Shown here one piece after another: positions 40,361 through 64,000 of a stretch of DNA of 64,000 nucleotides. The DNA is from Candidatus Latescibacterota bacterium (GTDB taxonomy: Bacteria > Krumholzibacteriota > Krumholzibacteriia > WVZY01). The notes beneath the pieces are model-generated. The model saw nothing but the letters and a program-made list of their open reading frames with translations, did no database searches and was not told the origin of the DNA. Positions within the stretch are counted from its first letter, which is position 1. Each line of letters opens with the position of its first letter. The stretch covers positions 5,092 to 69,091 of the forward strand of contig WVZY01000076.1 of the NCBI GenBank assembly GCA_011772205.1, read 5' to 3'. Both the position numbers and the translations under genes were made by a program.

Positions 40361-40384
40361 TGTCTTTGTTGAAGGAAGGGCGTC

Positions 40385-49792: not shown

Positions 49793-49830
49793 TGACAGAA
49801 ATCGTCGATCCCTCTAAAGTATTTAAAGTG
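49793..49830 (+). promoter_or_regulatory. Candidate promoter (TTGACA-N17-TAAAGT) upstream of the MarR-like gene, with a repeated ATCCCTCT motif (also at ~49703-49740 within an inverted repeat CCCTCT...AGAGGG)
   Basis: ttgaca at 49793-49798. A gatccctct motif overlaps the spacer. A second copy sits in an imperfect palindrome around 49705-49735. Confidence 0.25.
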
Positions 49831-49855: not shown

Positions 49856-50500
49856 ATGCCCGAGAAAGAAAATCCGGATCATTCCAAGCGAAGCCCAAAG
49901 GAAGGCGATGGGCCGCAGCCGGCAAGGGATTTCTTTCGTCTTCTCAGATATAGCCACATCTTTGCTTCAGCAGTACGGGAAATCCTGGAACTCAAGCTAC
50001 TCCGCGAAGTTAGCCCGCTACCGCTTACGCTGTCACAATTTCATCTCCTCAAGCTCATGTCCGTCAATGGGCAGCACCAAATGGGCCAGCTGGCCGATTT
50101 TCTCGGTGTGAGCCCACCCGCGGCTACCAAGAACATTGACAAGCTGGAGCGCCTGAAGCTGGTCGTCCGCACTCCCTCCAAAGGGGATCGACGAGCGACG
50201 CTGCTCTCGGTAAGCCCGAAGGGACGGCGGCTCGTGCGCAAGTATGAAGAGCTCAAGACGGAGAGGTTGACACCAGTATTGGATGAGTTTCAGCCACAGG
50301 AAGTGGAGAAACTATCCGAACTCCTCGAGAGATTTTCAGTGTCCTTGCTCAGAATCGAGCATCCGGGAGAGGAATTCTGTTTGCGCTGCGCGGCTTACAT
50401 TGCGGATGACTGTCCGGTGGGTCCGTTCTGCGGCGGGTGTCCTTACCAAAAGGGCCGCGCAATGACCTCGAACAGAGGTGCCGCTAAGGAGACACCATGA
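49856..50500 (+). CDS. MarR-family transcriptional regulator with a Cys-rich C-terminal extension
   Basis: MarR wHTH (QFHLLKLMSVNGQHQMGQLADFLGVSPPAATKNIDKLERLKLVVRTPSKGDRRATLLSVSPKGRRL). C-terminal CLRCAAYIADDCPVGPFCGGCPY. Confidence 0.75.
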   Translation: MPEKENPDHSKRSPKEGDGPQPARDFFRLLRYSHIFASAVREILELKLLREVSPLPLTLSQFHLLKLMSVNGQHQMGQLADFLGVSPPAATKNIDKLERLKLVVRTPSKGDRRATLLSVSPKGRRLVRKYEELKTERLTPVLDEFQPQEVEKLSELLERFSVSLLRIEHPGEEFCLRCAAYIADDCPVGPFCGGCPYQKGRAMTSNRGAAKETP

Positions 50501-50526
50501 GCTTAACCCTTATGGGGAGTGTTCAA

Positions 50527-50828
50527 TGAAGTATTGGAGAAAACCTTTAGATATCGATCAAGTAACGATCCCCCACGGCGAGGTGCACATTATTAAGGAC
50601 CGGTGCAAGGGCTGCGGTTTCTGCGTTGAGTATTGCCCGAAAGACGTGCTGGTGATGTCCGACGAGTTCAATAAAAAAGGATATCATCCACCGAAAGTGG
50701 TCAAACATGGTGAATGCGTTAACTGCAACCTGTGCGAAATGATCTGTCCTGATTACGCCATTTACAGTGTATCTGAGCCCGTAGGCGTGGCCGCGGCGGA
50801 GTCTGAGAAGCCGATTGAGAAAATCTAA
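50527..50828 (+). CDS. korD: 2-oxoacid:ferredoxin oxidoreductase delta subunit (2x[4Fe-4S] ferredoxin, KorD/PorD-like)
   Basis: Two CxxCxxCxxxCP motifs (CKGCGFCVEYCP and CVNCNLCEMICP). GGGGAG RBS. Confidence 0.8.
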
Positions 50829-50873
50829 GAATCAGGTGCCCGCGAGCTGCGGAGCAGCAAAGGAGGATGGCAA

Positions 50874-52031
50874 TTGAAAGCTGACCCTGCGGGCGTCTTG
50901 ACCGGCGCCCACTATCTCGATGGTGACTTTGCCTGCGGCGAGGGGGCCATGGCCGCGGGCTGCCGATTCGTGGCTGGCTACCCCATCACTCCCTCGACGG
51001 AGGTCGTTGAACGTATCTCACGCCGATTTCCTATGATGGGTGGTATATTCATCCAGATGGAAGACGAGCTAGCCAGCATGGCCGCAGTTGTGGGCGCGTC
51101 CTGGACGGGAACAAAATCTATGACTGTTACCAGCGGCCCCGGTTTCAGCCTGATGATGGAGAACATCGGCCTGGGGGCCATGATGGAAGCGCCATGCGTT
51201 GTGGTAAACGTGCAGCGCGGCGGACCCTCCACCGGGCTTCCGACCATGGTCGGGCAGGCGGATATCATGCAGGCCCGGTGGGGTTCACACGGCGATTATG
51301 AATTGATTGCACTGAGCCCGCAATCCCCCCAGGAGGCGTTTGACCTGACGATAGACGCGTTCAATCTCTCAGAAATCTACCGAGTCCCAGTGATGTTCAT
51401 GATGGATGAATGTGTCGGTCACATGACGGAGAAAGTCGTGATTCCCCCGGCGGAAGAGATCGAGGTGGTGCCTCGCAAACTTTCCAAACTCAAACCCGAG
51501 GAATATTGGCCGTATAGCGTTAATGGTGGCGATATCCCGGAAATGGTCCGGGCCGGCGATGGGTATCGATTTCACACGACCGGCCTCACGCACGACCACC
51601 GCGGCTATCCTGACATGAGCGCGGAGTGCCAGGAGTTGTGTGTCAGGCGTCTCGTTGAAAAGATCAAGCACAACGCAGATAAGATTGTTCGATTCGAGGA
51701 AGAAGAAACGGACGGAGCCGATGTGGTGGTGGTCACATATGGAATCACTGCCCGGGTTGCTCGCATGGGGATTGAAATGGCGAGGAAGAAGGGTGTCAAG
51801 GTAGGGGTCATCAGATTGATCGTGATCTGGCCGTTTCCCGAAAAGCGCATCCGGGAGCTAGCCGGTATGGTCAAAGCCTTCGTAGTGCCAGAGATCAATT
51901 ACGGTCAAATCGTTCTCGAAGTGGAGCGCTGCGCCGCAGGGAAGGCCGCGGCGGTGCCCGTGTCTCACGGCGGAGGCGGCGTTCATGATCCGAATGATGT
52001 TTGCCAAGCAATATTGGGGGCAGCGAAATGA
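50874..52031 (+). CDS. korA: 2-oxoacid:ferredoxin oxidoreductase alpha subunit (KorA/PorA-like)
   Basis: TTG start 8 nt after AAGGAGG. GYPITPS, FIQMEDE, SGPGFSLM and QRGGPSTGLPT motifs. Confidence 0.85.
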   Translation: MKADPAGVLTGAHYLDGDFACGEGAMAAGCRFVAGYPITPSTEVVERISRRFPMMGGIFIQMEDELASMAAVVGASWTGTKSMTVTSGPGFSLMMENIGLGAMMEAPCVVVNVQRGGPSTGLPTMVGQADIMQARWGSHGDYELIALSPQSPQEAFDLTIDAFNLSEIYRVPVMFMMDECVGHMTEKVVIPPAEEIEVVPRKLSKLKPEEYWPYSVNGGDIPEMVRAGDGYRFHTTGLTHDHRGYPDMSAECQELCVRRLVEKIKHNADKIVRFEEEETDGADVVVVTYGITARVARMGIEMARKKGVKVGVIRLIVIWPFPEKRIRELAGMVKAFVVPEINYGQIVLEVERCAAGKAAAVPVSHGGGGVHDPNDVCQAILGAAK

Positions 52032-52933
52032 GCAAAATTACAACCGATGAAACCGAAATTCTTGCCCAGCAGCACCCGATCGCTCCCTATCTCCGCATGG
52101 ACCGGATGCCGCATATTTGGTGTCCCACATGCGGGATCGGAACGGTGGTCAAGTGCTATGCTACAGCACTGGAGCAGTCGGGAGTTGACCTGGACAAGGT
52201 GGCGGTCGTCTCCGGCATCGGCTGCACCGGCCGGGTGGCAGGATATATGAAACTGGACGCGTTCCACACCACACACGGTCGGGCGATCCCGTTCGCTACC
52301 GGATTGAAGCTGGGTCGGCCGGAGATGCTGGTGACGGTGTTTTCGGGTGACGGAGACCTGGCGGGTATCGGGGGAAATCATCTCATCCATACCGGACGGC
52401 GCAACATCGACATGTTGGTCATCCTGGTAAATAACTTCATTTACGGCATGACGGGGGGACAGAACGCGCCCACTACACCGATTCCGGCCAGGTCATCGAC
52501 GATGCCGTACGGGAATTTCGAACCGCCGTTCAATCTGCCACACCTGGTGGCTAGCTGTGGTGCAACTTACGTGGCCCGATGGACATCGTTGCACATCCGG
52601 CGGTTGACGAAATCGTTCAACGAGGCGATTCACCGGAAGGGATTCCGCTTCATAGAGGTGATCGCACCGTGTTCGACGTTGTACGCACGTTTGAACAAAC
52701 TGGGCACGGGCTTCCACCTGATGCAGTTTTACCACGATCACGCGGAGATCCATCACGGGATAGACACGCGAGAGGTGGGCATTGGGTACCAGGATACCAT
52801 CATCTGTGGAAAGTTCATCGACGAGGAGAAGCCAACCTTCCTCGAGCTGATGAACAACCACTACCGAAAAGTCCTCGGCGACAAGTTTGTCCCGATGCCG
52901 CTGGAGGGAGGGATGATCCGTGAGCAGGACTGA
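52028..52933 (+). CDS. korB: 2-oxoacid:ferredoxin oxidoreductase beta subunit (TPP-binding, KorB/PorB-like)
   Basis: WCPGCG-type N-terminus (WCPTCGIG). TPP-binding GDG...N motif (FSGDGDLAGIGGNHLIH). ATGA overlap with korA. Confidence 0.85.
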   Translation: MSKITTDETEILAQQHPIAPYLRMDRMPHIWCPTCGIGTVVKCYATALEQSGVDLDKVAVVSGIGCTGRVAGYMKLDAFHTTHGRAIPFATGLKLGRPEMLVTVFSGDGDLAGIGGNHLIHTGRRNIDMLVILVNNFIYGMTGGQNAPTTPIPARSSTMPYGNFEPPFNLPHLVASCGATYVARWTSLHIRRLTKSFNEAIHRKGFRFIEVIAPCSTLYARLNKLGTGFHLMQFYHDHAEIHHGIDTREVGIGYQDTIICGKFIDEEKPTFLELMNNHYRKVLGDKFVPMPLEGGMIREQD

Positions 52934-53528
52934 GATCCGCATTACCGGCTTCGGCGGCCAGGGCGTAGTTCTGTCCGGCTATATCATCGGTCGCGCTTGC
53001 TCGATCAATTCGAACAAGCACGCCACGATGATCCAGAGTTTTGGCCCGGAAGCAAGGGGCTCCGCCTGCAGTGCGACGCTTGCCGTATCGGAAACCGAAG
53101 TGCTGTATCCATACATCGCCCGGCCGGATATCTTTATCGTTATGTCGGCGGAGGGCTACGACAAGTTTGGCGACGAGCTCAAAGACGACGGAACCCTTAT
53201 CTACGAGAAGGACCTGGTCCACCCCACTCTGAAAGAGGGTCAGCCTTCGTTCGGGATACCCTCTACCCGGATCGCCGAAAATCTGGGAAGGACGATCATT
53301 CAGAACATCGTGATGCTGGGTTTCTTCACGGGGGTGACGGGACTCATTACCCGCGAGGCAATGCGCGATGCGGTGAAGGCATCGGTACCGGCGGGCACGG
53401 AGGAGTTGAATCTAAAAGCATTCGACGCAGGCTATGCGTATTACGAGGAAGAGTACAGCAGAGGGAAGCAGAGCGAGGAAAAAGGAGCTGTCGCGGCCGA
53501 AACGGCTGAGAAAAGTCAATCAGAGTGA
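52920..53528 (+). CDS. korC: 2-oxoacid:ferredoxin oxidoreductase gamma subunit (KorC/PorC-like)
   Basis: ITGFGGQGVVLSG motif. GTG start overlapping the korB end. Confidence 0.8.
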   Translation: MSRTEIRITGFGGQGVVLSGYIIGRACSINSNKHATMIQSFGPEARGSACSATLAVSETEVLYPYIARPDIFIVMSAEGYDKFGDELKDDGTLIYEKDLVHPTLKEGQPSFGIPSTRIAENLGRTIIQNIVMLGFFTGVTGLITREAMRDAVKASVPAGTEELNLKAFDAGYAYYEEEYSRGKQSEEKGAVAAETAEKSQSE

Positions 53529-53555
53529 TAGCAACTTCAATATGGGAGCGAAAGC

Positions 53556-56500
53556 TTGGACAAGCAGCCTAAAGAGTCACGCGAAGTCCAAGGCGATGAT
53601 TCGGAAGAGATGCTGCAGCGGAATCACCCCCAAGATCCAAAGGAAGATGCCGCCCAGCGTATTGCGAAAGCGCTCGAGCCGACAACGGACAAGAGGGCCC
53701 TTGTCATAGGCGGCGGGATCGCCGGTATCCAAGCGGCCCTGGATCTCGCCGACGCCCGTATTGGCGTAACCATGGTGGAGAAATCGCCGTCGCTGGGCGG
53801 CCGCATGGCCCAGCTCGACAAGACGTTTCCCACCATGGACTGCTCGATATGAATCCTCGGGCCCAAGGCCATGGATGCCGGTCGGCATCCACTGATCGAT
53901 GTCGTAACGAACGCGGAAGTGATTGGCTGCGAGGGTGAGCCGGGGAACTTCCGTGTGCGTGTCAAGAAGCATCCTCGCTTTGTGCGCGAAGACAAGTGCG
54001 TCGCCTGCGGATTGTGCGTGGATGTCTGCCCGATGATTGGAGGAAACGAATTCGACGTCGGGCTGAAAGCACGTAAGGCGATCTACAGGCCCTTTCCGCA
54101 ATCGGTGCCCGCAGCATACGTGATCGACCCGCTTGCCTGCCTCAACTTTTTGGGTTACCTGAGCGAGAAGCAACGGAGAAGACTCGAAAAGGTGAAGAGG
54201 GCAAAAGAGCGGAAGGGTGATGAGTTCATAGCGAATATGCTGGTTTGCGGGCATTGCAGCAGCGTTTGCGAGGTCGATGCTATCGACTTCGACATGCGCG
54301 CCAAGGAATTCGATGTTGATGCCGGCGCCATTCTCGTTGCCGTTGGATTCCAGGAATTCGACGCGCGAAAGCTCGGTAACTACGGATACGGCCGGTTTCC
54401 CAACGTGGTGACCAGTCTGGAATTCGAGAGAATGCTCAATGCATCCGGCGTCACGCAGGGTCACGTGGTGAGGCCGTCTGACATGAAGACGCCGAAGCGG
54501 ATCGTGTTCGTCCAGTGCGTCGGCGCGCGAGGCGAGGGGGGTAGACCGTACTGCAGCCGTTTCTGCTGCATGAACGCAGTGAAAGATTCGATGCTGGTGC
54601 GCCAGCACGATCCCGAGGTCGAAGATGTCACCATTCTCTTTACCGACCTGCGGGCGTTCGGCAAGGGGTTCGACGATTTTCTGCAGCGGTCGCGCGAAGA
54701 AAAGAGCGCCAATTATGTGCGCGGCCGTCCCGCCAAAGTGGAATTGGTGCCCGAGGACGACAGCCTCGAGGTTTTCGTGGAAGATACCCTGGAGCACAAA
54801 CAAAAACGCATTCCCGCCGATCTGGTGGTATTGTCCGTCGCAGCAGCGCCAAACGACGGGGCGATCAAGCTTGCGGAGACTCTGGACATCGAAACGGATA
54901 AGTATGGGTTCATCGCCAGGCGTGATGCCGCCGTGTCCGCTGTAGAAAGCACCCGCGAGGGGATCTTTGTCTGCGGCAGTGCCGTCGGCCCCCAGGTGAT
55001 ACCGGATTGCGTCGCGCAGGCATCTGCTGTGGCCGCACGAGCCCAGCTGTTTCTTACCGGGCATCGAATCGAGGAGGAAGAGAAAACCGTTGAGCCGCTC
55101 GACTTGTCGGGACCGCCGAGGATCGGCGTTCTCGTTTGTCACTGTGGCATAAATATAGCCGGAGTGCTCGATGTGGAAGAACTCACCAATTACGCGGCTA
55201 GCATCCCCAATGTCGTGGTGTCGAAAAATAACATGTTTGCCTGTTCGTCAACTGGGCAGGACGAAATGGTCGAGCTGATCGAAGAGCACAAGCTGAACCG
55301 CCTGGTGGTTGCCGCATGCACGCCGCGTACGCATGAGCCGATTTTCCGTGAGACTTGCGCTCGGATTGGCTTCAATCCATATATGCTCGAAATGGTCAAC
55401 ATCCGTGACCAGTGTTCATGGGTGCATTCGAAGCAACCCGCTGAAGCCCAAGAAAAAGCGCGTGCACTTCTCCGCATGGGCGTGGCCAGGGCCCGGCATC
55501 TAGAGCCGCTTTATGAAGGAGAGGTGTCGATGACGCGCGCTGCCGTGGTAATCGGAGGAGGAATCGGCGGGATCCAAGCGGCAACCGATCTGGCCGTTCA
55601 AGGTTTCCCCGTAACCCTCGTAGAGAAAACAGGACGACCGGGGGGACGGCTAGTAAGCCCAAACCTCAAATATCTCTATCCCAACCTTCGGCCGGCGGCC
55701 GATGTGCTCAAGGAGAAGCTCCAGAGGCTGGAAAGGAGCGGTGCGCGCATTTGCCTCAACACGGAAGTTGAAAACATCACCGGGTACGTGGGCAATTTCG
55801 AAGTTACGTTGAAGGGGGACACAAACGAAACGATTCCAGCTGGAGCCATCATCCTCGCCTTTGGTGCGGATCTTTATGACCCCAAGGGAGAATTCGGCTA
55901 CGGGAAACTGCCGAACGTAATTACCAGCGAAGAACTGGAACGAGCATTTTTCAAAGACGAATCCAAAATCACCGCCGACAATCGCAAACCGAAAAACGCT
56001 TCATTCATCCTATGTGTGGGCTCGCGCGATCCGGAGGGTTTTACCGGGTGCTCGCGGTATTGCTGCCCAACGGCGATCAAGCAGGCGATAGAGCTCGCCA
56101 AGCAGGATATCGACACAACAGTTTTCTTCAGGGACATCCGAACCATCTCCACCGGAGCCGAAGAGATGTATCGTGAAGCGAGGGGGATGGGAGTGTTGTT
56201 CGTCCGTATACCGCCGGGCCGTAAACCCGAAGTGGTTGGTAAAGAGCGGGCGGAAGCCATCCAATGCTATGATGATCTACTCGCACGGAATCTCGAGGTT
56301 CCAACCGATCTGGTAGTGCTGAGTGTCGGGATGCGGCCGCTCAAGGAGGAAACGGCGAAATTCCACGACATGCTCAAGGCCAGCCTCGGGCTCGACGGAT
56401 TCTTTCTCGAGCGCCATCCTGAATTGGCGCCGGTGGAGACAGCTGTGGAGGGAGTGCTTCTTGCCGGCACAGTGCAAGGGCCGAAAGATATCGTGGACAC

Positions 56501-56825
56501 GGTGGCTCAGGCCTCGGCGGCTGCGGCGAAAGCGTCCGTATTCCTTGCCTATGATACGGTGAAATTGGACCCCACGGTAGCGGTGGTTGGCGAAGGAAAA
56601 TGCCGTGCATGCGGCACGTGCGTCGATATCTGCCAATTCCGGGCGCCACAGCTCGTAGAAGCCGATGACGGCACGTATACGGCGGTGATCAATGCATCGC
56701 TTTGCAAAGGCTGCGGCACCTGTGCGAGCTGGTGCCCTTCGGGCGCGATTGTTTCGAAGCATTTCACGGACAAACAGGTGCACGCCATGATCGATGCGTT
56801 TTTTGCCGAAGAGGTCTCGGGATGA
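53556..56825 (+). CDS. hdrA: Large tandem-type HdrA-like flavoprotein (heterodisulfide reductase subunit A family); selenoprotein with in-frame TGA (Sec) at 53850..53852
   Basis: The ORF finder split this at the TGA. Reading through gives ...[30 protein letters not shown]..., i.e. the HdrA site where Sec/Cys is known. Two FAD-binding [10 protein letters not shown] / [10 protein letters not shown] motifs, several 4Fe-4S ferredoxin motifs and an HdrA N-terminal Cys cluster (CHCGINIAG...ACS...AACTPR) appear mid-protein. TTG start with a GGGAG RBS. Confidence 0.75.
53873..53890 (+). ncRNA. SECIS-like hairpin (GGATGCC-GGTC-GGCATCC) 20 nt downstream of the hdrA UGA
   Basis: Perfect 7-bp stem with a GGUC apical loop inside the coding sequence. 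The same element sits downstream of the second hdrA UGA. Confidence 0.55.
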
Positions 56826-57466
56826 CAGCCTCTAAGGAACAACGGGAAGCGGATAAGTCCCGGACGGGCACACGAGCCAAGAAGTCACCGAAGACAGGAG
56901 CAAAAGCGAAGACAAAAGCCCCTGCAAAGAAGACCTCCAAGAAGATTACACAGGAGACGGTGAAAGAAGCTCCAGCGAAAACGGCGGATAAATCACCGAA
57001 GACAACACCTGATGCGGCTCCGAAAGCGCCGGCCGAAATCCCTGGTGCGTGGAATCCTCGCATCGTTGTGTTCGCATGCAACTGGTGCTCGTATGCGGGG
57101 GCTGATACCGCGGGAGTATCTCGAATTCAACACCAACCGCATTTTCGAATGATCCGGGTGATGTGTTCCGGTCGTATCCAGGCCGGTTTCGTTTTGCACG
57201 CGTTCGAGAAAGGGGCCGATGGGGTGCTGGTGTCGGGCTGCCACTTTGGGGACTGCCACTACATCTTTGGGAATCATCGTGCGGTCGAACAATTCGAAAA
57301 GACGATGAACGTGGTCAAACTCTTGGGTATTGAAGAAGGCCGTCTCCGCCTGGAATGGATTAGTGCGGCAGAGGGCGTCCGATTTGCGGCGGTCATCAAC
57401 GAGTTCACCGACCAGGTCCGCAAACTGGGTCCGAGCCCGCTGACCAGTAGACAAGAGGCAGCATGA
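56822..57466 (+). CDS. mvhD: MvhD-like (methyl-viologen-reducing hydrogenase delta subunit family) protein with a Lys/Ala/Pro-rich N-terminal tail
   Basis: [12 protein letters not shown]...CSGR...GADGVLVSGCHFGDCHY (MvhD/FlpD signature). N-terminal AKKSPKTGAKAKTKAPAKKTSKK. ATGA overlap with hdrA. Confidence 0.8.
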   Translation: MTASKEQREADKSRTGTRAKKSPKTGAKAKTKAPAKKTSKKITQETVKEAPAKTADKSPKTTPDAAPKAPAEIPGAWNPRIVVFACNWCSYAGADTAGVSRIQHQPHFRMIRVMCSGRIQAGFVLHAFEKGADGVLVSGCHFGDCHYIFGNHRAVEQFEKTMNVVKLLGIEEGRLRLEWISAAEGVRFAAVINEFTDQVRKLGPSPLTSRQEAA

Positions 57467-57481
57467 CGATAAACGGAGTTG

Positions 57482-58663
57482 ATGCCGATGCGGGAATTAG
57501 CGGATGCAGCCAAGCAGACAAAAGCTTGGGCCTGTTATGACTGCGGGAAATGTACCGCCACATGCCCGATTTCGAGGGTAGGGGGAGATTATACCCCTCG
57601 CCGGCACGTACTGGCGACAAACCTGGGGCAACGTAAAGAGCTTGTCGAGAATGGCAGCCTGAACAGCTGTCTGACATGCAGCCTGTGTGACCAGCGCTGC
57701 CCGGCCGAGGTCGCCTATACCACCTTGGTTCAAAAGCTCAGGGAAATCACGCATGTGGATGGGAAAGAACCGGAGTGCCCGCACGGCGGTGCGCTTCAGT
57801 CGATGATGCGGGTGATGGCGAAGGGCGGGACGAAGCAAAACCGCATGGAATGGCTGACGGATGACTTAAGGACCGAATCGAAGACGGGAGAGGCGCTCTA
57901 CTGGACCGGGTGCACGATGTATTATGACGCCTTCTTCCCGGAATTCAAGATCTCAACGTTGGAAGGCACTCGCGCTGCAGTACGGCTCATGAACCGTGTG
58001 AATGTTACTCCTGTTGTATCTCCCGAGGAACGTTGCTGCGGGCACGACCTGCTGTGGAACGGTGACAGGGAACATTTTGAGCTGCTCGCCAAGCATAATG
58101 TAAAGCTCGTTGCTGACAGCGGTGCCAAGACGCTGGTTACCTCCTGCGCCGAGTGTCTCCGTACCTGGAAGATTGACTACGCACCGTTTTTCGAAAGTGC
58201 CCCGCCCCGGATACTCCACATCACCGAATTTCTCTCGGACTACCTATCGGCTCTCGAGTTCAAGGCGAACGGCAAGCGCAAGGTCGTCTTTCAAGATCCA
58301 TGTCGGCTGGGCCGTCACTTGGGAATTTACGATCCCCCGCGGAGGGCGTTGTCCGCACTGCCCGGGATCGAGCTCGTGGAGATGCGCCGTTCGGGACCGG
58401 GAGCGGTCTGCTGCGCCGGAGGGACATGGTCGAACTGCGACCGATTTGCAAAGAAGATTCAGGTTGAACGCCTGCGGGAAGCGCGGGCGACAGGAGCGGA
58501 AGTGCTTGCGACGGCATGTCCAAAATGCCAGGTCCACTTCCGTTGTACAATGCAGGACCCCAATCTTGCTGGCGAGATCGAAATAAAAATGAGCGATGTC
58601 GCCCAGCTGGTAGTGGACTCCCTCTCCCAGGGGATCAAAAGTGAGAGGGATGGGTCTGAATAG
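57482..58663 (+). CDS. HdrD-like fused HdrC/HdrB protein (2x[4Fe-4S] ferredoxin domain + two CCG cysteine-rich domains)
   Basis: CYDCGKCTATCP and CLTCSLCDQRCP. CCG motifs (CTMYYD...CCGHD; QDPCRLGR...CCAGG). Confidence 0.8.
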   Translation: MPMRELADAAKQTKAWACYDCGKCTATCPISRVGGDYTPRRHVLATNLGQRKELVENGSLNSCLTCSLCDQRCPAEVAYTTLVQKLREITHVDGKEPECPHGGALQSMMRVMAKGGTKQNRMEWLTDDLRTESKTGEALYWTGCTMYYDAFFPEFKISTLEGTRAAVRLMNRVNVTPVVSPEERCCGHDLLWNGDREHFELLAKHNVKLVADSGAKTLVTSCAECLRTWKIDYAPFFESAPPRILHITEFLSDYLSALEFKANGKRKVVFQDPCRLGRHLGIYDPPRRALSALPGIELVEMRRSGPGAVCCAGGTWSNCDRFAKKIQVERLREARATGAEVLATACPKCQVHFRCTMQDPNLAGEIEIKMSDVAQLVVDSLSQGIKSERDGSE

Positions 58664-58691
58664 ATGATTGCTGGAACAGGAAGGGCTTCGA

Positions 58692-61145
58692 ATGGCTTCC
58701 AACCCAAAAGATGACGAGATTCGCGTTGGTGTGTTCGTCTGCGATTGCGGGCTCAACATCGCCGGAGCCGTGGACTGCGGCGCGGTGGCCGAGTACGCTG
58801 AGACGCTGCCCGATGTGGCATGCGTCGTTCGGAACAAGTACACCTGCGCAGATCCAGGCCAGAACGAGATCAAAGATGCGATCCGCCAGCACCGTTTGAA
58901 CCGCGTGGTGGTTGCCTCCTGTACTCCAAGGCAGCACGAACCCACGTTCCGACAGTGCGTGCGGGAAGCCGGCATGAATCCGTACCTCATGGAAATGGCG
59001 AACCTGCGCGAGCACTGCTCGTGGGTGCATCCCGGAGAATGGGAGGCCGCGACGGGAAAGGCAAAGGATTTGGTGGCTAGCGCTGTGGCACGGGCTCGAC
59101 TGCTGCAGCCTCAGGAGGAACTTTCCGTTCCTGTTACTAAGCGCGCGCTGGTGATCGGTGGCGGCGTGGCAGGGATCGAAGCTGCGCTCGAGCTCGGCGA
59201 TGCGGGACACCAGGTCGTCCTCGTTGAAAAACAACCGTCCATCGGTGGGATCATGGCGCAGCTGGACAAAACGTATCCCACGATGGACTGCTCGATATGA
59301 ATTCTCGGCCCCAAGGCCATCGATGCCGGTCGGCATCCCAACATCGAGCTTCTCACCTTCAGCGAGGTCGAAGAGGTCTCCGGATACATCGGAAACTTCA
59401 CGGTGAAGATCCGGAAAAAAGCCCGTTACGTAGACCCGGGTCTATGCAACGCGTGCGAGGAGTGCGCCAAAGTTTGTCCGGTAGTCAAACCTGACGAGTT
59501 CCAAATGGGGCTGTCCTCGCGCAAAGCGATTTACATCCCCTTCCCACAAGCCGTTCCCTGTTCCTATATCCTTAATATGGATGATTGTTTAGGCAACAAT
59601 CCGATTGCCTGCGGAAAATGTGCCGATGTCTGCGAGAAGAAGGCGATCGATTACGACGACCAGGACGAAATCATCGAGCGCGAAGTCGGAGCGATCATCG
59701 TGGCCATCGGCATGGACGTCTATGATCCCACCGAGATGGATGAATACGGGTACACCCGTTTCGAGAATGTTATCACCTCGATGGAGTTCGAGCGGCTGAT
59801 CTGCGCGGGAGGACCAACGGCTGGGCACTTCGTGCGGCCCAGTGATCACGAGCGGCCCAAGCGCATCGGATTCATACAATGTGTCGGCTCGAGAAACCCA
59901 AAGATCGGCAGGCCTTACTGCTCGAACATCTGTTGCATGAATACGGTGAAGGATACTCTCCTCCTGGCCGATCATTACCCGGATACGGATAATTACGTCT
60001 TCTACCAGGATATTCGTGCATTCGGAAAATCGTTCGAAGACATGTTCCAGCGATCCAAAGAGGCAGGGACAAAATTCATTCGGGGACTTCCAGGAGATAT
60101 CGAGGAGGATCCCGAAACGCGCAAGCTCACCATCACCGTTGAAAACACAACCAGCGGGAGACTGGAACGGCACGAGCTCGATATGGTAGTGCTCTCGGTT
60201 GGCGTCGTACCACCCAAAGATCGTGACAAGGTTTCCGGATTGCTCACTCTGTCCAAGACCTCCGATGGATTTTTCATGGAGTCGCATCCGAAGCTCAAAC
60301 CGGTGGACGCGCCGACGCGGGGCGTCTTTTTCGCCGGTTTCTGCGAGGCCCCCAAGGATATCAAGGATTCCGTCTGTCAAGCCGGAGCAACTGCCTCCCG
60401 CGCCGGTGCACTGTTGAATGCCGGCGAGATATCTGTTGAGGCGATCACCAGCAGGATCGACGAGGAAGCCTGCACGCAGTGCGGGCTGTGCGCCGCGGTG
60501 TGCCCCTACGGAGCGATCATTTGGAGGAAGGGGGAGCCGGCCGTCGTCGTGGAAGCTGCCTGTGCCGGTTGCGGAGCGTGTGGCGCCACATGTCAATTTG
60601 GAGCGATTACCATGCGTCACTTTACGGACGAGCAGCTAATCGCTCAAGTCCGCGCCGTGCTTGCGGAGAACCCGCAGGATAAGGTGTTCGTCTTTGCGTG
60701 CAATTGGTGCTCGTATGCGGGCGGCGACATGGCCGGGATATCCCGAATGCAATACCCCACTACCAACCGCGTTATCAGAACGATGTGCTCCGCGCGAGTG
60801 TCGGAGGAGATGGTTCTCGAAGCGTTCCGTTGCGGTGCACCGGCCGTTCTGGTATCAGGATGCCATTATGCGGACTGCCACTACATCAACGCCAACAGAC
60901 AGACGGTCAAGCGCATGCAGCGTCTGTGGAATAAGCTCGACAAGGCCGGTGTGCGGCCCGAGCGGCTGCAGCTTGAGTGGATCAGTGCTGCAGAGGGGCA
61001 GAAATTCGCCAAAGTGATGCGCCAGATGGAGGAGATTCGAGAAACTGTCACGATGGAGGAGATCGAACACACGAAGCAAGCGCTCAAGCCGAAGCCCAAG
61101 AAGAAGGCTCCAAAGAGCAAGGAAGCGGCAGCTGCGGCAAGCTAA
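58692..61145 (+). CDS. hdrA: HdrA-MvhD fusion flavoprotein; selenoprotein with in-frame TGA (Sec) at 59298..59300
   Basis: HdrA N-terminal Cys cluster ([10 protein letters not shown]...ASCTPR), [13 protein letters not shown] motif, ...[31 protein letters not shown]..., ferredoxin motifs, then a C-terminal MvhD domain ([12 protein letters not shown]...CSAR...GCHYADCHY) and a Lys-rich tail [13 protein letters not shown]. Confidence 0.8.
59322..59337 (+). ncRNA. SECIS-like hairpin (GATGCC-GGTC-GGCATC) 21 nt downstream of the second hdrA UGA
   Basis: Same stem-loop as at 53873-53890. The surrounding ~55 nt are nearly identical between the two paralogs at the nucleotide level. Confidence 0.5.
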
Positions 61146-61168
61146 ATAGAAAATGACCGGAGGGTCAT

Positions 61169-61324
61169 ATGGCAGAAGTAACGACAGAAACGTTTCGATG
61201 CATGATGTGCGGCCATGAATATCAGGAAAAAGTGGAAAAAGGGGAGGACAAGGAGCGCTCCTGTCCAAAGTGTCGCTCGAACAGCATCTGGCATCTCAAG
61301 AAAAAACGACCGGCGAAGGAGTAA
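61169..61324 (+). CDS. Small (51 aa) zinc-ribbon protein (CxxC-N18-CxxC)
   Basis: GGAGGG RBS 5 nt upstream of the ATG. FRCMMCGHEY...SCPKCRS. Lies between hdrA/mvhD and hdrC. Confidence 0.45.
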   Translation: MAEVTTETFRCMMCGHEYQEKVEKGEDKERSCPKCRSNSIWHLKKKRPAKE

Positions 61325-61329
61325 TTGAA

Positions 61330-61857
61330 ATGCCCCAGAAGCCGAAAGATTCGCCGAGTGGCAAAAACAAAGTCGCACGCATCGATTTTCGATTTCGCCG
61401 TGAGCTTGCGGAAAAGATCGAAGGCGACCTGGCAAGCTTTTGTTATCAGTGTGGTGCCTGCGTTGGAGACTGCCCGGCGACGACTTACGGAAGTGATTTC
61501 AATCCCCGGGACATCATGCTCAAAGTGCTTTACGGCCTGGGAGATGAGCTCCTGGGTGAGAATTCGATCCTTTGGGAATGCACCAATTGTTACAACTGCC
61601 ACGAGCGCTGCCCGCAGGATGTCAAGCCCGTTGAAGTGATTATTTCGCTCAAGAACATGTTGGCAGATCTCGGCATTTACCCGCCGGCGGTCGAAAAAGT
61701 CATCCAAACATTCGAAAAAACCGGCCGAACCGTTCCCTTGAGCGATGCGGTTAACCGCCAGCGAGAAAAATTCGGTTTGCCACCCTTGCCGGAGGTGCCG
61801 ATGGAAGAGATTCAAAAGCTCATCGAACCGGATTCGGAAGAAGGAGAAAAGGATTGA
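61330..61857 (+). CDS. hdrC: Heterodisulfide reductase subunit C-like protein (HdrC)
   Basis: CYQCGACVGDCP and CTNCYNCHERCP motifs with the HdrC helical C-terminus. Confidence 0.8.
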   Translation: MPQKPKDSPSGKNKVARIDFRFRRELAEKIEGDLASFCYQCGACVGDCPATTYGSDFNPRDIMLKVLYGLGDELLGENSILWECTNCYNCHERCPQDVKPVEVIISLKNMLADLGIYPPAVEKVIQTFEKTGRTVPLSDAVNRQREKFGLPPLPEVPMEEIQKLIEPDSEEGEKD

Positions 61858-62741
61858 AACGCTTTGCGTTTTTCCCCGGCTGCTTGATTCCCGCGCGCCA
61901 TCCCGCCATGGAGTTCGCCATCAGGGAAGCCCTTCCCAGGCTCGGAATAGAGATCGTGGATCTCGATAATGCATCGTGCTGTCCGGATCCGATCTATTTC
62001 AAATCGAAAGACAAGCTTTCATGGCTTGCTGTGGCAGCGCGCAACCTTTGCCTCGCCGAAGATCTAGGCCTGGACATCTTTACCAACTGTTCCGGTTGCA
62101 CGGCCACCCTTTCGGAAACGTACCATCTCCTGCAAAACGAGGTGCTCAGAGAAAAGGTGAACAAACGCTTGAAAAGAATCGGACGGGAGTACAAGGGGAC
62201 TTCCAGGGTAAGGCACATCGTAACCCTGTTGAGAGATTTCGCCGGATACGAGGCGATCAAGGATTCTGTCGAACGTCCGTTGGAAGGCCTCAAAATGGCG
62301 ATCCACTACGGCTGCCATCTCCTGAAACCCAGCCGGATCATGCAGGTCGATGATCCAAACGATCCGAGCGTGATGGAGAATCTTGTCACAGCTCTCGGTG
62401 CAACACCGGTGAGGCACCGCAACTGGTACCTTTGCTGCGGTAAAGCTTGCCAATCGGACGAAGTCCCCTCGAACATGATGCACGATTTGTTGGGTACAGT
62501 GAATGATGAGCATGCGGACATTCTGTGCATGATTTGCCCTACCTGTTTTGGCCAGTTCGATTTCGGACAGATGAAAGTGTCCAAGCAGTTTGGGGAGGAT
62601 TTCCACACGCCGCCCGTCTATTATTTCCAGCTCCTCGCTTTTGCCCAAGGCGTGCCTTATGACAAGCTTGGACTGGAGAGACAGCGGTTCAAACCGGATT
62701 GCCTCCGCCGTTTCGAAACCACCACGATCCCTGAAGGGTAA
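61854..62741 (+). CDS. hdrB: Heterodisulfide reductase subunit B-like protein (HdrB, two CCG domains)
   Basis: CCG motifs (CCPDP...CSGC; HYGCHLLKP...CCG). TTG start overlapping the hdrC stop. Confidence 0.8.
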   Translation: MKRFAFFPGCLIPARHPAMEFAIREALPRLGIEIVDLDNASCCPDPIYFKSKDKLSWLAVAARNLCLAEDLGLDIFTNCSGCTATLSETYHLLQNEVLREKVNKRLKRIGREYKGTSRVRHIVTLLRDFAGYEAIKDSVERPLEGLKMAIHYGCHLLKPSRIMQVDDPNDPSVMENLVTALGATPVRHRNWYLCCGKACQSDEVPSNMMHDLLGTVNDEHADILCMICPTCFGQFDFGQMKVSKQFGEDFHTPPVYYFQLLAFAQGVPYDKLGLERQRFKPDCLRRFETTTIPEG

Positions 62742-63099
62742 TTTTCTTAGAAAATTGGAGTACGCGCATGACGCGTTCCCGGCGACGTGTTTTTCGAGGC
62801 GCGGAGCCGACGCATATTGGGGCTCGGCATAGCCGCTATCGCGATCCGCACAACCCGGCTGCCAAATACCCGCGAGCTTCGTAATTGCTTGGATTTTAGA
62901 TGATTTTCGAGTAAATTGGGATTGACCCCGCGCAGTATAAGTGTCAATGTAATAATGTGTGGAGATGGGGGACGCTGGGATAGGATATCTGCAGACACCC
63001 CAATAAGTTGTAAGGATGCAAATTGTCCGGTGCATGCCCGCCGGGCGGATACCCCAAAGTACTGCCATCAGCTGAATCTCAATTCGGATTCCGTCTAGA

Positions 63100-63121
63100 G
63101 GCAAGAGGAGTTACCACTCCT
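63100..63121 (+). promoter_or_regulatory. Hairpin AGAGGAG-N6-CTCCTCT in the ~400-nt intergenic region upstream of the second kor set
   Basis: 7-bp inverted repeat. Role unknown (attenuator, terminator or protein site). Confidence 0.2.
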
Positions 63122-63175
63122 CTGCTTGTTTAGTAGATGGAAAACAAATTGAGCCGGTTCATGAGGAGGCCGGTG

Positions 63176-63391
63176 ATGCCGAAGAAAAATCCTGTGATAG
63201 AAATAAAAATGGAATGGTGCAAAGGGTGCGCGTTTTGTGTTGAATTCTGCCCCAAGGAAGTGCTGCAAATGAAGGGCATATATCCGGTAGTTGCAAAAAT
63301 AGAAGACTGCACGGCCTGTGGCTTGTGCGAAGTTTTGTGTCCTGATTTCGCTATCGAGGTAATTGCGGAGGACGAGGCGGTGAAGAAATAG
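63176..63391 (+). CDS. 2-oxoacid:ferredoxin oxidoreductase delta subunit paralog (2x[4Fe-4S])
   Basis: GAGGAGG RBS 6 nt upstream. CKGCAFCVEFCP and CTACGLCEVLCP. Confidence 0.75.
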   Translation: MPKKNPVIEIKMEWCKGCAFCVEFCPKEVLQMKGIYPVVAKIEDCTACGLCEVLCPDFAIEVIAEDEAVKK

Positions 63392-63420
63392 AAGACGTGA
63401 TGTGTGTGAAAGGAATTTTC

Positions 63421-64000
63421 AATGCAGTCGAATCAGAAGGATAAAGTGCAGGTTATCACTGGCAATGAAGCGTGCGCCGAAGGAGCGTTAGCGGCCGGTC
63501 TGAAATTTTTTGCCGGCTATCCAATCACACCCTCTTCCGAAATTGCGGAGATCTTATCGTTGCGGCTTCCCAGGGTGGATGGGCGGTTCATTCAGATGGA
63601 AGATGAAATAGCCGCTATGGGAGCTATTATCGGCGCATCGCTGGCAGGGGCGAAAGCCATGACCGCAACCAGCGGTCCCGGCTTTTCGCTGAAGCAAGAA
63701 AATATCGGCTACGCGGCCATGGCGGAAGTCCCCTGTGTGGTGGTCAATGTTCAAAGGGGAGGACCTAGCACTGGCCTGCCAACCCTACCTGCCCAAGGGG
63801 ATGTCATGCAGTCCCGCTGGGGCACGCACGGTGATCATCCTATTATTGCGCTCGCGCCGCACAGCGTAAGAGAAACGTTCGAGCTGACAATCCGCGCGTT
63901 CAACCTTTCCGAAATGTATCGCACACCTGTGATTTTGCTAATGGACGAGGTTATAGGGCATGTGAATGAAAAGGTGATCTTACCCGGACCGGATGAGTAT
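63421..64000 (+). CDS. 2-oxoacid:ferredoxin oxidoreductase alpha subunit paralog; truncated by the window end
   Basis: MQSNQKDKVQVITGNEACAEGALAAGLKFFAGYPITPSSEIAE...FIQMEDEIAAMGA...SGPGFSL...QRGGPSTGLPT. No stop before the window end. Confidence 0.8.

Follow-up and report, generated by a model that had tools for sequence, protein, structure and literature searches.

The kor-hdr gene cluster

The window (the whole 64,000-nucleotide stretch of Candidatus Latescibacterota contig WVZY01000076.1 analyzed here) carries a run of forward-strand genes for a four-subunit 2-oxoacid:ferredoxin oxidoreductase (Kor1) and for heterodisulfide reductase (Hdr)-type proteins. A MarR-family regulator gene (49856..50500; Pfam MarR, 5e-14), with a promoter-like site on its 5' side (49792-49820), lies 25 nt upstream of korD1, and the operon probably starts with it. 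Next come korD1 for the delta subunit with two [4Fe-4S] clusters (50526..50828; Pfam Fer4/Fer4_7), korA1 for the alpha subunit (50874..52031; Pfam POR_N and PFOR_II), korB1 for the TPP-binding beta subunit (52028..52933; Pfam TPP_enzyme_C) and korC1 for the gamma subunit (52920..53528; Pfam POR, 1e-34). A korD1 gene upstream of korA1 was also found in related loci. An earlier sequence-only reading of this DNA had placed the korD1 start one nucleotide too far downstream (50527 instead of 50526). KorA1 exceeded the cut-off of NCBIfam NF006412 (556 versus 411 bits), a generic model and the only one passed, and its best matches among solved structures are 1yd7, 8ys5 and 6n2n. No NCBIfam cut-off was reached by KorC1 or by KorB1, for the latter including all equivalog cut-offs.

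The Hdr part begins with a tandem ("giant") hdrA gene (53610..56825, or from a TTG start at 53556; 1071 aa), identified by Pfam, NCBIfam and phmmer against 5odc_A. It is followed by mvhD (56822..57466; Pfam FlpD, 2e-50), for a [2Fe-2S] adaptor with an N-terminal extension of ~75 aa rich in Lys, Ala and Pro, and by an hdrD-like gene (57482..58663), in which an HdrC-type part with two [4Fe-4S] clusters (Pfam Fer4_8/Fer4_17) is fused to an HdrB-type part with two complete CCG domains. The HdrD-like protein has more than 4200 homologues, and a Ca. Latescibacteria MAG encodes a protein, GTO51_10230, that matches it with 100% identity. The hdrA2 gene (58692..61145; 817 aa) encodes an HdrA-MvhD fusion that aligns over its full length with the NCBIfam HdrA2 model NF040770 (1157 bits, cut-off 1100) and has a FlpD domain at residues 665-782. 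Downstream are a gene for a 51-aa zinc ribbon protein (61169..61324; Pfam Zn_ribbon_8, below cut-off) with the motif CxxCGxE...ERxCPxCxSNSxR, an hdrC-like gene for a subunit with two [4Fe-4S] clusters (61330..61857; Pfam Fer4_8/9/17; TIGR03290, 112 bits, short of the 160-bit cut-off) and an hdrB-like gene for a subunit with two CCG domains (61854..62741; TIGR03288, 280 bits, short of the 345-bit cut-off). Of the two MvhD adaptors in the cluster, one stands alone and the other is part of a fusion; there are also two complete CCG modules of the disulfide reductase type, the HdrD-like protein and HdrBC.

HMM domain mapping with Pfam and NCBIfam backed every gene identity of the sequence-only reading, and its gene order also stands: all genes are on the forward strand, and the same order recurs in dozens of genomes that belong to other phyla. 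It had further described most junctions as ATGA/GTGA overlaps. Only 4 of the 11 overlap (korA/korB by 4 nt, korB/korC by 14 nt, hdrA/mvhD by 4 nt as ATGA, hdrC/hdrB by 4 nt), and the others are gaps of 5-81 nt. Overall the spacing is tight (-14 to 81 nt), and a single operon is the best explanation for the region.

A second kor set had been taken as the other half of a bracket around the Hdr genes. It lies behind a 419-nt spacer (62742..63160), which has no Rfam match and contains a terminator-like hairpin (63104-63123), and it adjoins the conserved unit in only a few loci, so that the bracket does not hold as a unit; the second set is loosely linked and outside the conserved unit. Within the window its genes are also on the forward strand: korD2 (63161..63391) and korA2 (from 63422, incomplete at the window end at 64000). 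On the same contig they are followed by korB2, korC2 and a gene for a ~1000-aa protein with a GlnD_UR_UTase domain. The Kor1 and Kor2 alpha subunits are 50% identical.

Selenocysteine codons and the tandem HdrA

Both HdrA genes are interrupted by an in-frame TGA in the motif TMDCSI-U-ILGPK and are not open under the standard code. The sequence-only reading missed both codons and translated straight through them; its 1090-aa HdrA and its HdrA-MvhD fusion exist only if these codons are taken as selenocysteine. The codons are at 53850..53852 in the tandem hdrA (residue 81, aligned by phmmer to residue 197 of 5odc_A) and at 59298..59300 in hdrA2 (residue 203), and TGA was found at this site in 134 of 134 motif instances. 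Each is followed on the forward strand by a SECIS-like hairpin, GGAUGCC-GGUC-GGCAUCC at 53873..53890 and GAUGCC-GGUC-GGCAUC at 59322..59337. Synonymous sites in the hairpins are frozen (GAT 134/134, CAT 134/134, GGT 132/134, against a background of 25-27%), and the stems show compensatory covariation (GCC:CGG versus GTC:CGA). Selenocysteine at the site equivalent to HdrA Cys197 is well supported for both UGA codons by these sequence patterns. In M. maripaludis HdrA, Sec197 occupies the equivalent site, and a Cys-Sec relay has been proposed (PMC13518236). The two predicted selenoproteins have all cofactor motifs of bifurcating HdrA.

In the tandem HdrA, a first TrxR-like unit, which carries Cys78-x2-Sec81 and a ferredoxin domain as an insert, is followed by an N-terminal-type Cys domain (~502-641), a second TrxR-like unit and a C-terminal 2x[4Fe-4S] ferredoxin domain. 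The permuted domains map to four stretches of 5odc_A by phmmer, and motif mapping (Cys, GxGxxG, CCxxxxK) found both flavin-proximal Lys residues. The protein is a fused HdrA pseudo-dimer, for which seven [4Fe-4S] clusters and two FAD are predicted. The suggestion of a permuted or duplicated HdrA was right in that the protein consists of two HdrA units and has the N-terminal Cys domain in its middle; the architecture is not new, as ANME HdrA3/4 and Moorella HdrA are known fused pseudo-dimers in which the N-terminal domain and Cys197 are lost in a complementary way (PMC9012536), and BamE of class II benzoyl-CoA reductase is likewise one (preprint 10.64898/2026.04.10.717634). The predicted cofactor count agrees with the BamE description.

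Conservation of the unit and linkage of Kor1 to Hdr

We examined 79 related loci, selected by HdrD-like similarity (the 80 best among at least 581 matches), from Planctomycetota, Acidobacteriota, Gemmatimonadota, Zixibacteria, KSB1, Eisenbacteria, WOR-3, TA06, Deltaproteobacteria/Myxococcota, Methylomirabilota and Latescibacterota. Within this sample of best matches, about a dozen phyla, most of them uncultured, share the arrangement with hardly any change: where the sequence extends far enough, Kor1 lies upstream and on the same strand (56 of 56 loci), HdrA2 is found downstream in 69 of 69, and the giant HdrA is present in 59 of 64 and HdrB in 51 of 60. The zinc ribbon gene, with four invariant Cys, is kept directly 3' of hdrA2 in 65 loci. 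The conserved unit is [MarR]-korDABC-tandem hdrA-mvhD-hdrD-like-hdrA2-Zn ribbon-hdrC-hdrB. A MarR gene with a Cys-rich tail directly upstream, as pointed out from the sequence alone, proved to be a recurrent first gene: homologues with the same C-terminal four-Cys motif (C-L-R-C-x7-C-x8-C) precede korD in 23 of 54 loci. The operon is probably autoregulated by its own MarR. Hemerythrin (6 loci) and GNAT (17 loci) genes recur in the flanks.

Identity between phyla is very high (up to ~88%), which suggests that the operon was horizontally transferred as a unit. Distance matrices of KorA1 and the Hdr proteins correlate at r=0.92-0.94, as tightly as those of the Hdr proteins among themselves, a mirror-tree correlation that such transfer would inflate, together with the apparent independence of the loci. 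A survey for kor-hdr synteny had been proposed as one check on the cluster, and korDABC was found directly 5' of the Hdr genes in every informative locus. Recurrent synteny and the tracking of Kor1 and Hdr distances exclude chance juxtaposition. Both observations make it well founded to regard the 2-oxoacid oxidoreductase as functionally coupled to a bifurcation module of HdrA, MvhD and CCG proteins.

It is very improbable that the cluster is an already characterized Hdr system (class II benzoyl-CoA reductase, MetFV-Hdr, Flox-Hdr, sulfur-oxidizing sHdr or Mvh/Fdh-Hdr) or that Kor adjoins it by accident. The giant HdrA/MvhD/HdrD-like trio does have the architecture of BamE/BamF/BamD, and HdrA2 passes the NCBIfam HdrA2 cut-off, but no gene for BamB/BamC (AOR-type), BamGHI, MetF/MetV, hydrogenase, formate dehydrogenase or lipoate-binding protein is present in the window cluster or the conserved flanks, and accidental adjacency does not fit the invariable presence of Kor.

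A possible, if rather doubtful, alternative is that the coupling is loose. Kor1 would then be an ordinary ferredoxin reducer, sharing a transcript with one or two independent Hdr complexes and linked to them by the soluble ferredoxin pool, with no supercomplex or direct wiring, and the operon would only co-regulate a ferredoxin producer and a ferredoxin consumer. Thauera KGOR, which serves class I benzoyl-CoA reductase, is a precedent for kor genes beside a ferredoxin consumer. None of the 79 loci showed a Kor-Hdr gene fusion, korC and hdrA are separated by 27-81 nt in the window, and KorD1 is a delta subunit of the standard type with two clusters. However, korC and hdrA overlap in some loci (e.g. 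L055 and L061), and Kor1 forms a clade separate from the conventional Kor2 of the same genome. The tight Kor1/Hdr co-evolution also argues against loose coupling, as do the solved HdrA structures with a genomically linked low-potential partner, all of which are physical complexes.

Possible electron flow

On balance, we consider it more likely than not that the operon encodes a selenium-dependent Hdr-type flavin-based bifurcating or confurcating machinery together with Kor1 as its dedicated 2-oxoacid:ferredoxin oxidoreductase. This would be a three-terminal redox device. Kor1 (~-500 mV) would be the low-potential terminal, with KorD1 or ferredoxin connecting it to the ferredoxin domain inserted in an HdrA; the CCG proteins would be the high-potential terminal, with a disulfide, or perhaps a flavoprotein such as ETF, as their reaction partner; and an NAD(P)H-level carrier would enter through MvhD as the middle terminal. 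Genes for thiol carriers (DsrC, LbpA, TusA, thioredoxin) were not found in the window cluster or the conserved flanks. An NfnB/GltD-like NAD(P)H module is embedded in 16 of the 79 related loci, in three architectures (as an insert in an additional giant HdrA, as an insert in the sole giant HdrA, or as a fusion to MvhD that replaces the giant HdrA). The window's own cluster has no middle-potential module, and a complete bifurcation scheme therefore cannot be built from its encoded parts; the module would have to be encoded elsewhere, or the second Hdr unit may substitute for it.

The missing module would also fit a disulfide reductase that is driven by 2-oxoacids without bifurcation and serves in thiol homeostasis or under stress, an explanation that we regard as improbable. 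Electrons would pass from Kor1 through the HdrA flavins to the two CCG sites and on to small-molecule or protein disulfides (e.g. CoA disulfides), under redox-sensing MarR control. The MarR gene with its conserved Cys tail at the head of the operon and the hemerythrin and GNAT genes in the flanks are compatible with such a role, and M. acetivorans HdrA2B2C2 reportedly also has ferredoxin-dependent heterodisulfide reductase activity. Yet all features of bifurcating HdrA are kept (inserted and C-terminal ferredoxin domains, flavin-near Lys, Cys-Sec pair, MvhD adaptors), a simple ferredoxin:disulfide reductase would not need ~3400 Hdr residues and two selenocysteines, and the three independent recruitments of an NAD(P)H module are hard to explain without a third redox partner.

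Our searches of the literature found no description of a Kor-Hdr system, and the cluster suggests an electron-bifurcating enzyme system, so far undescribed, with a link to the chemistry of 2-oxoacids and CO2. For the proposed three-terminal device, we narrowly favor bifurcation over confurcation. In bifurcation, a middle-potential donor would reduce the CCG acceptor and drive reductive carboxylation of an acyl-CoA by Kor1, leaving ordinary oxidation to the neighboring conventional Kor2. In confurcation, the close alternative, a 2-oxoacid and a dithiol would together reduce NAD(P)+. The position proposed here for Kor1 is occupied by Fwd/Fmd in methanogen Hdr supercomplexes and by BamBC in class II benzoyl-CoA reductase.

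A conserved Kor-Hdr operon

Between 49.8 and 64 kb of the window every gene lies on the + strand, and the gene order given by the sequence-only reading is correct: MarR, korD1-A1-B1-C1, giant HdrA, MvhD, HdrD-like protein, HdrA-MvhD fusion (HdrA2), 51-aa Zn ribbon, hdrC, hdrB and, beyond a gap, korD2 and korA2, the latter truncated. All domains were confirmed by Pfam, with POR_N/PFOR_II, TPP_enzyme_C, POR and Fer4 in the Kor (2-oxoacid:ferredoxin oxidoreductase) subunits, FAD/Pyr_redox and Fer4 in the HdrA proteins, FlpD in MvhD, and Fer4_8/17 plus two CCG domains both in the HdrD-like protein and in HdrC+HdrB. The operon comprises 12 genes, encodes two predicted selenoproteins and ties Kor to two Hdr modules. 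Most gene junctions had been read as ATGA/GTGA overlaps; overlaps are found at only 4 of the 11 junctions (korA/B, korB/C, hdrA/mvhD and hdrC/hdrB), the rest being gaps of 5-81 nt. The operon is tight even so. The HdrD-like protein has a 100% identical counterpart, GTO51_10230, in a Candidatus Latescibacteria MAG; an exact-protein lookup with HdrB gave no match, probably due to a start-codon difference.

An alignment of HdrD-like homologues was scanned against one genome per species, which yielded at least 581 confirmed loci. The best 80 were taken with 10-kb flanks, window proteins were mapped onto them by tblastn, and counts were made over loci with enough sequence. The sampled loci all derive from MAGs and are hosted by Planctomycetota/Phycisphaerae, Gemmatimonadota, Eisenbacteria, Zixibacteria, KSB1, TA06, WOR-3, Deltaproteobacteria/Myxococcales, Methylomirabilota, Dehalococcoidia and Acidobacteriota (Sulfomarinibacter, Thermoanaerobaculia, Holophagae, Terriglobia and Aminicenantes). 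HdrA2 follows the HdrD-like gene in all loci (69/69), the giant HdrA precedes it in 59 of 64, and HdrB is found around it in 51 of 60. Both korA1 and korB1 are located upstream on the same strand in 51 of 56 loci. In the five exceptions, korB/korC are present at the locus edge and an extra HdrA gene shifts korA out of range; with this edge effect taken into account, Kor1 is therefore linked in effectively 56/56 informative loci. The kor-hdr synteny thus recurs in other genomes, which excludes a chance juxtaposition. Protein identity to the window is 60-90%, even across phyla, suggesting horizontal spread of the whole operon.

The MarR-like regulator with a Cys-rich tail, already noticed upstream of the cluster, is part of this picture. 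Its gene is preceded by a promoter-like site and ends 25 nt 5' of korD1, the tail motif C-L-R-C-x7-C-x8-C is conserved among related loci, and a MarR gene is found around the HdrD-like gene in 23 of 54 loci. Other neighbors are absent from the window. A GNAT acetyltransferase gene flanks the operon in 17 loci, 5' of MarR or 3' of hdrB (for example at 1623-2240, 15250-15831 and 3900-4502 of the fetched loci L007, L009 and L059, respectively), and in 6 loci hemerythrin-domain genes lie beside the operon or within it.

The second kor set does not share this conservation. The Hdr genes had been described as bracketed by two Kor gene sets, but a kor2-type set, whose alpha subunit is 50% identical to that of Kor1, adjoins the Hdr operon in only a few loci. 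The bracket is therefore a local feature, and the conserved unit is Kor1 plus Hdr. Within the window, hdrB and kor2 are separated by 419 nt of non-coding DNA (62742-63160) with a terminator-like, strong hairpin near its end, 37 nt before the korD2 start (AGAGGAGT-TACC-ACTCCTCT, followed by a T-rich tail). This hairpin could be the operon terminator, or a 5' leader/attenuator of kor2. In 12 loci, spread over several phyla, kor2 or a lone korC2-like gene is directly followed by the gene of a roughly 1000-aa protein (L001 12192-14833, L071 16718-19720, L061 14879-17818, and 9 others). The sole domain recognizable in this protein, GlnD_UR_UTase (nucleotidyltransferase-associated, 46-49 bits), lies at the C-terminus. 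The protein does not match canonical GlnE and may be a regulator tied to 2-oxoglutarate or nitrogen status.

Kor1 is of the four-subunit Kor/Oor type by Pfam, with POR_N and PFOR_II in the alpha, TPP_enzyme_C in the beta, POR in the gamma, and 2x[4Fe-4S] in the delta subunit. KorA1 passes the generic 2-oxoacid:acceptor oxidoreductase alpha model NF006412 (556 bits versus 411), and KorB1 and KorC1 remain below NCBIfam equivalog cut-offs. The nearest solved relatives include OGORs, and isocitrate dehydrogenase and aconitase genes adjoin the Zixibacteria loci. These Kor-type relatives and neighbors point to 2-oxoglutarate as a possible substrate, but the scores stay below the cut-offs of the OGOR-specific models (NF007206, 369 with a cut-off of 579; NF007207, 234 with a cut-off of 364). 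In the WOR-3 clusters (L081 and L082, 372-5017), two consecutive korA-korB pairs precede korC, so that Kor may be heteromeric or duplicated in this lineage.

Two HdrA proteins with in-frame TGA codons

Both HdrA genes had been taken as open frames. Each of them contains an in-frame TGA codon on the + strand, at 53850-53852 in the giant HdrA and at 59298-59300 in HdrA2, in both cases within the motif TMDCSI-*-ILGPK. In a phmmer alignment, the stop codon takes the position of Cys197 in the solved HdrA 5odc_A. The same site is occupied by Sec197 in the HdrA of Methanococcus maripaludis, for which a Cys-Sec selenenylsulfide relay between flavin and N-terminal-domain cluster has been proposed in a 2026 structure paper (PMC13518236). 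We predict that both TGA codons encode selenocysteine.

All 134 instances of the motif, counted over the window together with 79 related loci, have TGA at this codon, and TGT at the Sec site was only seen in a Dehalococcoidia paralogue with a different motif. An Rfam scan of 49.5-64 kb (E<=1) gave no match, either to SECIS families or in the hdrB-korD2 spacer, and the SECIS element was instead established by comparative codon analysis. A hairpin, GAUGCC-GGUC-GGCAUC, is found 24 nt 3' of the UGA, with a GGUC loop that we take to resemble the SECIS loop of E. coli fdhF. Codon choice within the hairpin is strongly constrained: all 134 Asp codons are GAT (27% in the remainder of these genes), all 134 His codons are CAT (25% elsewhere), Gly is GGT in 132/134, and the Arg codon CGC is never used (43% elsewhere). 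The single variable pair covaries (GCC with CGG 87 times, GTC with CGA 24 times, GTC with AGG or CGG 21 times, GCC with CGA 0 times). Hence, as in bacterial selenoprotein genes, a UGA at a conserved Cys position is combined with a downstream hairpin with a GGU-containing loop. Single-sequence folding of the 61 nt 3' of each UGA was unremarkable (z = -0.9 and -1.3), and is not evidence alone. No tRNA genes were found within the 64-kb window.

Gene callers cut both HdrA proteins at the Sec codon, and in a Phycisphaerales genome the fragments comprise 70+985 and 202+546 residues. If the proposed system is real, its HdrA proteins are thus consistently annotated in MAGs as fragments, and wrongly so.

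Architecture of the Hdr proteins

Comparison of the giant HdrA with 5odc_A by phmmer gives four aligned stretches, which set the domain order. Residues 27-490 form a TrxR-like FAD domain with inserted ferredoxin domain and Cys78-x2-Sec81, lacking an N-terminal domain; residues 502-641 form an N-terminal-type Cys domain; the third stretch is a second TrxR-like domain without CxxC/U motif and without inserted ferredoxin domain; and residues 985-1067 form a C-terminal two-cluster ferredoxin domain. The protein contains motifs for seven [4Fe-4S] sites, two GxGxxG FAD sites (34 and 649), and a flavin-proximal Lys in both halves (Cys 303/315/319/320 and 802/814/818/819; CCxxxxK at 319 and 818). The suggestion that this HdrA is duplicated or permuted is thus borne out in substance, but the architecture had been described before (PMC9012536; preprint 10.64898/2026.04.10.717634 on BamE).

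HdrA2 passes the NCBIfam HdrA2 model NF040770 with 1157.4 bits (cut-off 1100), residues 11-792 matching profile positions 1-777. It has the canonical domain order, with N-terminal Cys domain, Cys/Sec197 pair, and inserted and C-terminal ferredoxin domains all present (GxGxxG at 156, Cys 397/410/414/415, CCxxxxK at 414). Features of bifurcating HdrA are thereby found in both proteins. The C-x(11-12)-C-x3-CC [4Fe-4S] site followed by the flavin-proximal Lys (Lys409 in 5ODC) is present in the giant HdrA and in HdrA2, and the giant HdrA has the N-terminal Cys domain, the Cys194-x2-Cys/Sec197 pair, and the inserted and C-terminal 2x[4Fe-4S] ferredoxin domains once each, in permuted order.

HdrB and HdrC have the expected domains (two CCG and 2x[4Fe-4S], respectively) with scores under the equivalog cut-offs (TIGR03288, 280 versus 345.15; TIGR03290, 112 versus 160). 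Judged by these profiles, they are HdrB- and HdrC-like proteins, not equivalogs. The Zn ribbon is found 3' of HdrA2 in 65 loci, with four invariant Cys in the motif CxxCGxE...ERxCPxCxSNSxR. The N-terminus of MvhD (56822-57050) is extended by about 75 aa of low-complexity sequence rich in Lys, Ala and Pro, which is absent from the Phycisphaerales orthologue (171 aa), and HdrA2 ends in a similar tail (61090-61142).

Within the cluster, an NfnB/GltD-like NAD(P)H-binding module (Fer4_20 + Pyr_redox_2) is present in 16 of 79 loci, in three architectures that represent independent recruitments. In Phycisphaerales, Sulfomarinibacter and one Zixibacteria locus it resides in the inserted-ferredoxin domain of an additional giant HdrA, and in WOR-3 and TA06 it is inserted into the sole giant HdrA. 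In KSB1-type loci and one Phycisphaerae locus it is fused to a ferredoxin domain and MvhD, with the giant HdrA replaced and HdrCB missing. Examples are found at 5190-9467 of L002 (with a 70-aa fragment at 4959-5171), 7464-9956 of L059 and 5030-9421 of L081. The insertion point coincides with a 35-residue charged insertion (Cys177-Cys213) in the giant HdrA of the window, whose cluster gave only 35-bit matches at the FAD motif when searched for the module. An NfnB-like insertion of the same kind is known in some ANME-1 HdrA (PMC9012536), and HdrA/GltD fusions (HdrL) are known from Desulfobacterium (PMC2702500). The core that is invariant over all variants consists of Kor1, an MvhD-bearing protein, the HdrD-like protein, HdrA2 and the Zn ribbon.

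Known relatives and a possible mechanism

A close architectural parallel is the class II benzoyl-CoA reductase of Geobacter metallireducens. According to a 2026 cryo-EM preprint, BamE consists of two fused HdrA units with permuted domains and contains clusters E1-E7 and two FAD, the CxxC pair and the bifurcating flavin lie in its N-terminal TrxR unit, and its inserted ferredoxin domain feeds the hard-wired low-potential catalytic module BamBC; partners are the MvhD adaptor BamF and the HdrBC-fusion BamD, which hands the high-potential electron to ETF (10.64898/2026.04.10.717634). The window's giant HdrA, MvhD and HdrD-like protein match BamD-E-F in parts list and in domain order, as compared by architecture and cofactor motif count rather than by Bam sequences. 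In contrast to Bam, Kor stands in place of BamBC, Sec is located in HdrA at the Cys197 equivalent instead of in the MvhD adaptor, the flavin-proximal Lys is present in both TrxR units (Gln in BamE TrxR2), and the cluster has another complete Hdr unit (HdrA2-HdrCB) as well as a Zn ribbon. With every MarR-to-hdrB ORF accounted for, neither tungsten AOR-type BamB with BamC nor HydABC-like BamGHI was found in the window cluster or in any of the 79 related loci.

The methanogen Mvh/Vhu(Fdh)-HdrABC-Fwd/Fmd supercomplexes (PDB 5ODC, 7BKB, 8RVU; PMC13518236) share the strong HdrA domain match (phmmer E=4.5e-189 to 5odc_A), Sec at 197, the MvhD adaptor, HdrBC-type CCG sites, and a CO2-converting enzyme of about -500 mV tied to the bifurcating core. 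Unlike these, the window cluster is bacterial, lacks hydrogenase and formate dehydrogenase, has a fused pseudo-dimer as one of its HdrA proteins, and has the TPP enzyme Kor rather than formylmethanofuran dehydrogenase as CO2-converting partner; the bacteria concerned are not expected to have CoM or CoB. With Methanosarcina acetivorans HdrA2B2C2 (NF040770), the window shares an HdrA-MvhD fusion, which matches the model end to end and above its cut-off, and an hdrC-hdrB pair behind it, but here Sec replaces Cys, a Zn-ribbon gene is interposed, HdrB and HdrC are sub-cut-off, and the unit lies in one cluster with Kor and another Hdr unit. Given the bacterial host, F420 and CoM-S-S-CoB are unlikely substrates.

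The fused HdrA proteins of ANME (HdrA3/4) and Moorella (MetFV-HdrABC-MvhD) likewise have two HdrA units per polypeptide, one without the N-terminal domain and the other without Cys197, which implies an intramolecular heterodimer and was read in this way by Chadwick et al. (PMC9012536). The order of units is reversed, however, with the Sec197 unit first and the N-terminal-domain unit second in the window, and the partner genes differ. FloxABCD-HdrABC/HdrL of sulfate reducers (PMC2702500) resembles the 16 related loci that combine an NAD(P)H module, an MvhD-like adaptor and Hdr logic, but the window has neither such a module nor a DsrC context, and Kor linkage is undescribed for Flox or HdrL. 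The sHdr systems have a short HdrA without ferredoxin domains, the order hdrC1B1A-hyp-C2B2 and a linked LbpA, whereas the window HdrA proteins keep all ferredoxin domains and no LbpA-like gene was found in the window cluster or in conserved flanks of related loci. As defining partner genes are missing, membership of the cluster in BCRII, MetFV-Hdr, sHdr or Mvh/Fdh-Hdr was rejected.

In the full-text literature searched, which did not cover the main HdrA(BC) diversity review, we found no description of the conserved Kor-Hdr operon. The closest prior mention is a brief remark by Castelle et al., which places Hdr, POR and OGOR genes in one large cluster of Zixibacteria RBG-1 (PMC3903129), and none of 12 surveyed bifurcating enzyme classes has a 2-oxoacid oxidoreductase partner (PMC6085437). 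So far, the known bifurcation partners of HdrA are a handful: hydrogenase, formate dehydrogenase, F420, MetFV, Flox and BamBC/BamGHI. Sec197-HdrA, fused HdrA, HdrA2 and HdrD-like proteins were already known singly; provisionally, what is new is that, in many phyla, they form a fixed set together with a dedicated Kor.

From this parts list and its conservation, we infer a three-terminal HdrA-type redox device. Kor1 would be the low-potential terminal, reached from the inserted ferredoxin domain of an HdrA by way of KorD1 or ferredoxin; by analogy, it would take the position of formylmethanofuran dehydrogenase in methanogen supercomplexes and of BamBC in benzoyl-CoA reductase. The 2-oxoacid/acyl-CoA+CO2 couple has a potential near -500 mV. 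The CCG proteins (HdrD-like protein and HdrB/HdrC pair) would form the high-potential terminal. Both have two complete CCG motifs and are therefore predicted to be competent for disulfide reduction, and a flavoprotein acceptor is also possible from the BamD-ETF precedent. The middle terminal would enter through MvhD, as NAD(P)H wherever a module is encoded; for the window, its gene might lie outside the cluster, as is often the case for Mvh or Fdh in methanogens, or the second Hdr unit might supply it.

Only two modes would be thermodynamically consistent. In bifurcation, a middle donor would reduce both Kor1, acting as 2-oxoacid synthase, and the CCG acceptor; in confurcation, 2-oxoacid and dithiol would together reduce a middle acceptor. 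We lean slightly toward bifurcation, because every known HdrA system with a hard-wired low-potential partner runs this way, because an oxidative Kor can unload electrons without Hdr, and because the genome keeps a conventional Kor2. Against this stands the fact that the host lineages are generally regarded as heterotrophs.

The same components would also allow a non-bifurcating 2-oxoacid:disulfide reductase for thiol homeostasis, which the Cys-tailed MarR and the hemerythrin and GNAT neighbors fit, but which accords poorly with a fully conserved bifurcation apparatus and the repeated recruitment of NAD(P)H modules. As to how Kor1 and Hdr are connected, the pairwise-distance matrix of KorA1 correlates with those of HdrD-like protein, HdrA2, giant HdrA and HdrB at r=0.92-0.94, in the same range as among Hdr proteins. 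This speaks for co-inheritance of Kor1 with Hdr, not for physical contact, and a search for Kor-Hdr gene fusions in related loci returned out-of-frame overlaps only. The main alternative to the proposed redox device is coupling of Kor1 and Hdr through soluble ferredoxin only. We consider it rather unlikely, yet conceivable, that Kor1 and Hdr form one supercomplex, a further flavin-based bifurcating class that would use electrons at the NAD(P)H or thiol level to carboxylate succinyl-CoA (or another acyl-CoA) reductively to a 2-oxoacid, with no need for a pool of free low-potential ferredoxin. It would be a selenium-dependent bacterial counterpart of the CO2-fixing Hdr-Fwd supercomplex of methanogens, horizontally spread through about 12 largely uncultured sediment phyla. 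The hosts are abundant, mostly uncultured sediment bacteria, with an energy metabolism inferred from annotation alone. If the proposed Kor-Hdr system is real, the balance of ferredoxin-level electrons, NAD(P)H and thiol/disulfide couples in them would be altered, with a possible route of CO2 incorporation at the 2-oxoglutarate step and a selenium requirement added to central metabolism.

Further genes of the window lie outside the operon. A Mo/W cofactor cluster (32234-41182, +) encodes MobA-like, MoeA, MoaA-like radical SAM, MOSC/MoCF and FdhD proteins and a molybdate/tungstate-type ABC transporter (SBP_bac_11, ABC with TOBE). These Mo-cofactor, tungstate-transport and FdhD genes (32-41 kb) were rejected as part of the Kor-Hdr system, with unrelated genes (IspG, UvrC) in between and no recurrence in other loci. 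On the - strand (28064-31679), a GatD-like gene (Asparaginase + GatD_N) adjoins a GatE-like gene (GatB_N with a large insertion + GatB_Yqey); the pair is an archaeal-type Glu-tRNA(Gln) amidotransferase, which is unusual for a bacterial MAG. A TPR-containing Ser/Thr protein kinase (22741-24366, +) adjoins a 1065-aa TPR-CHAT protein (24546-27743, -).
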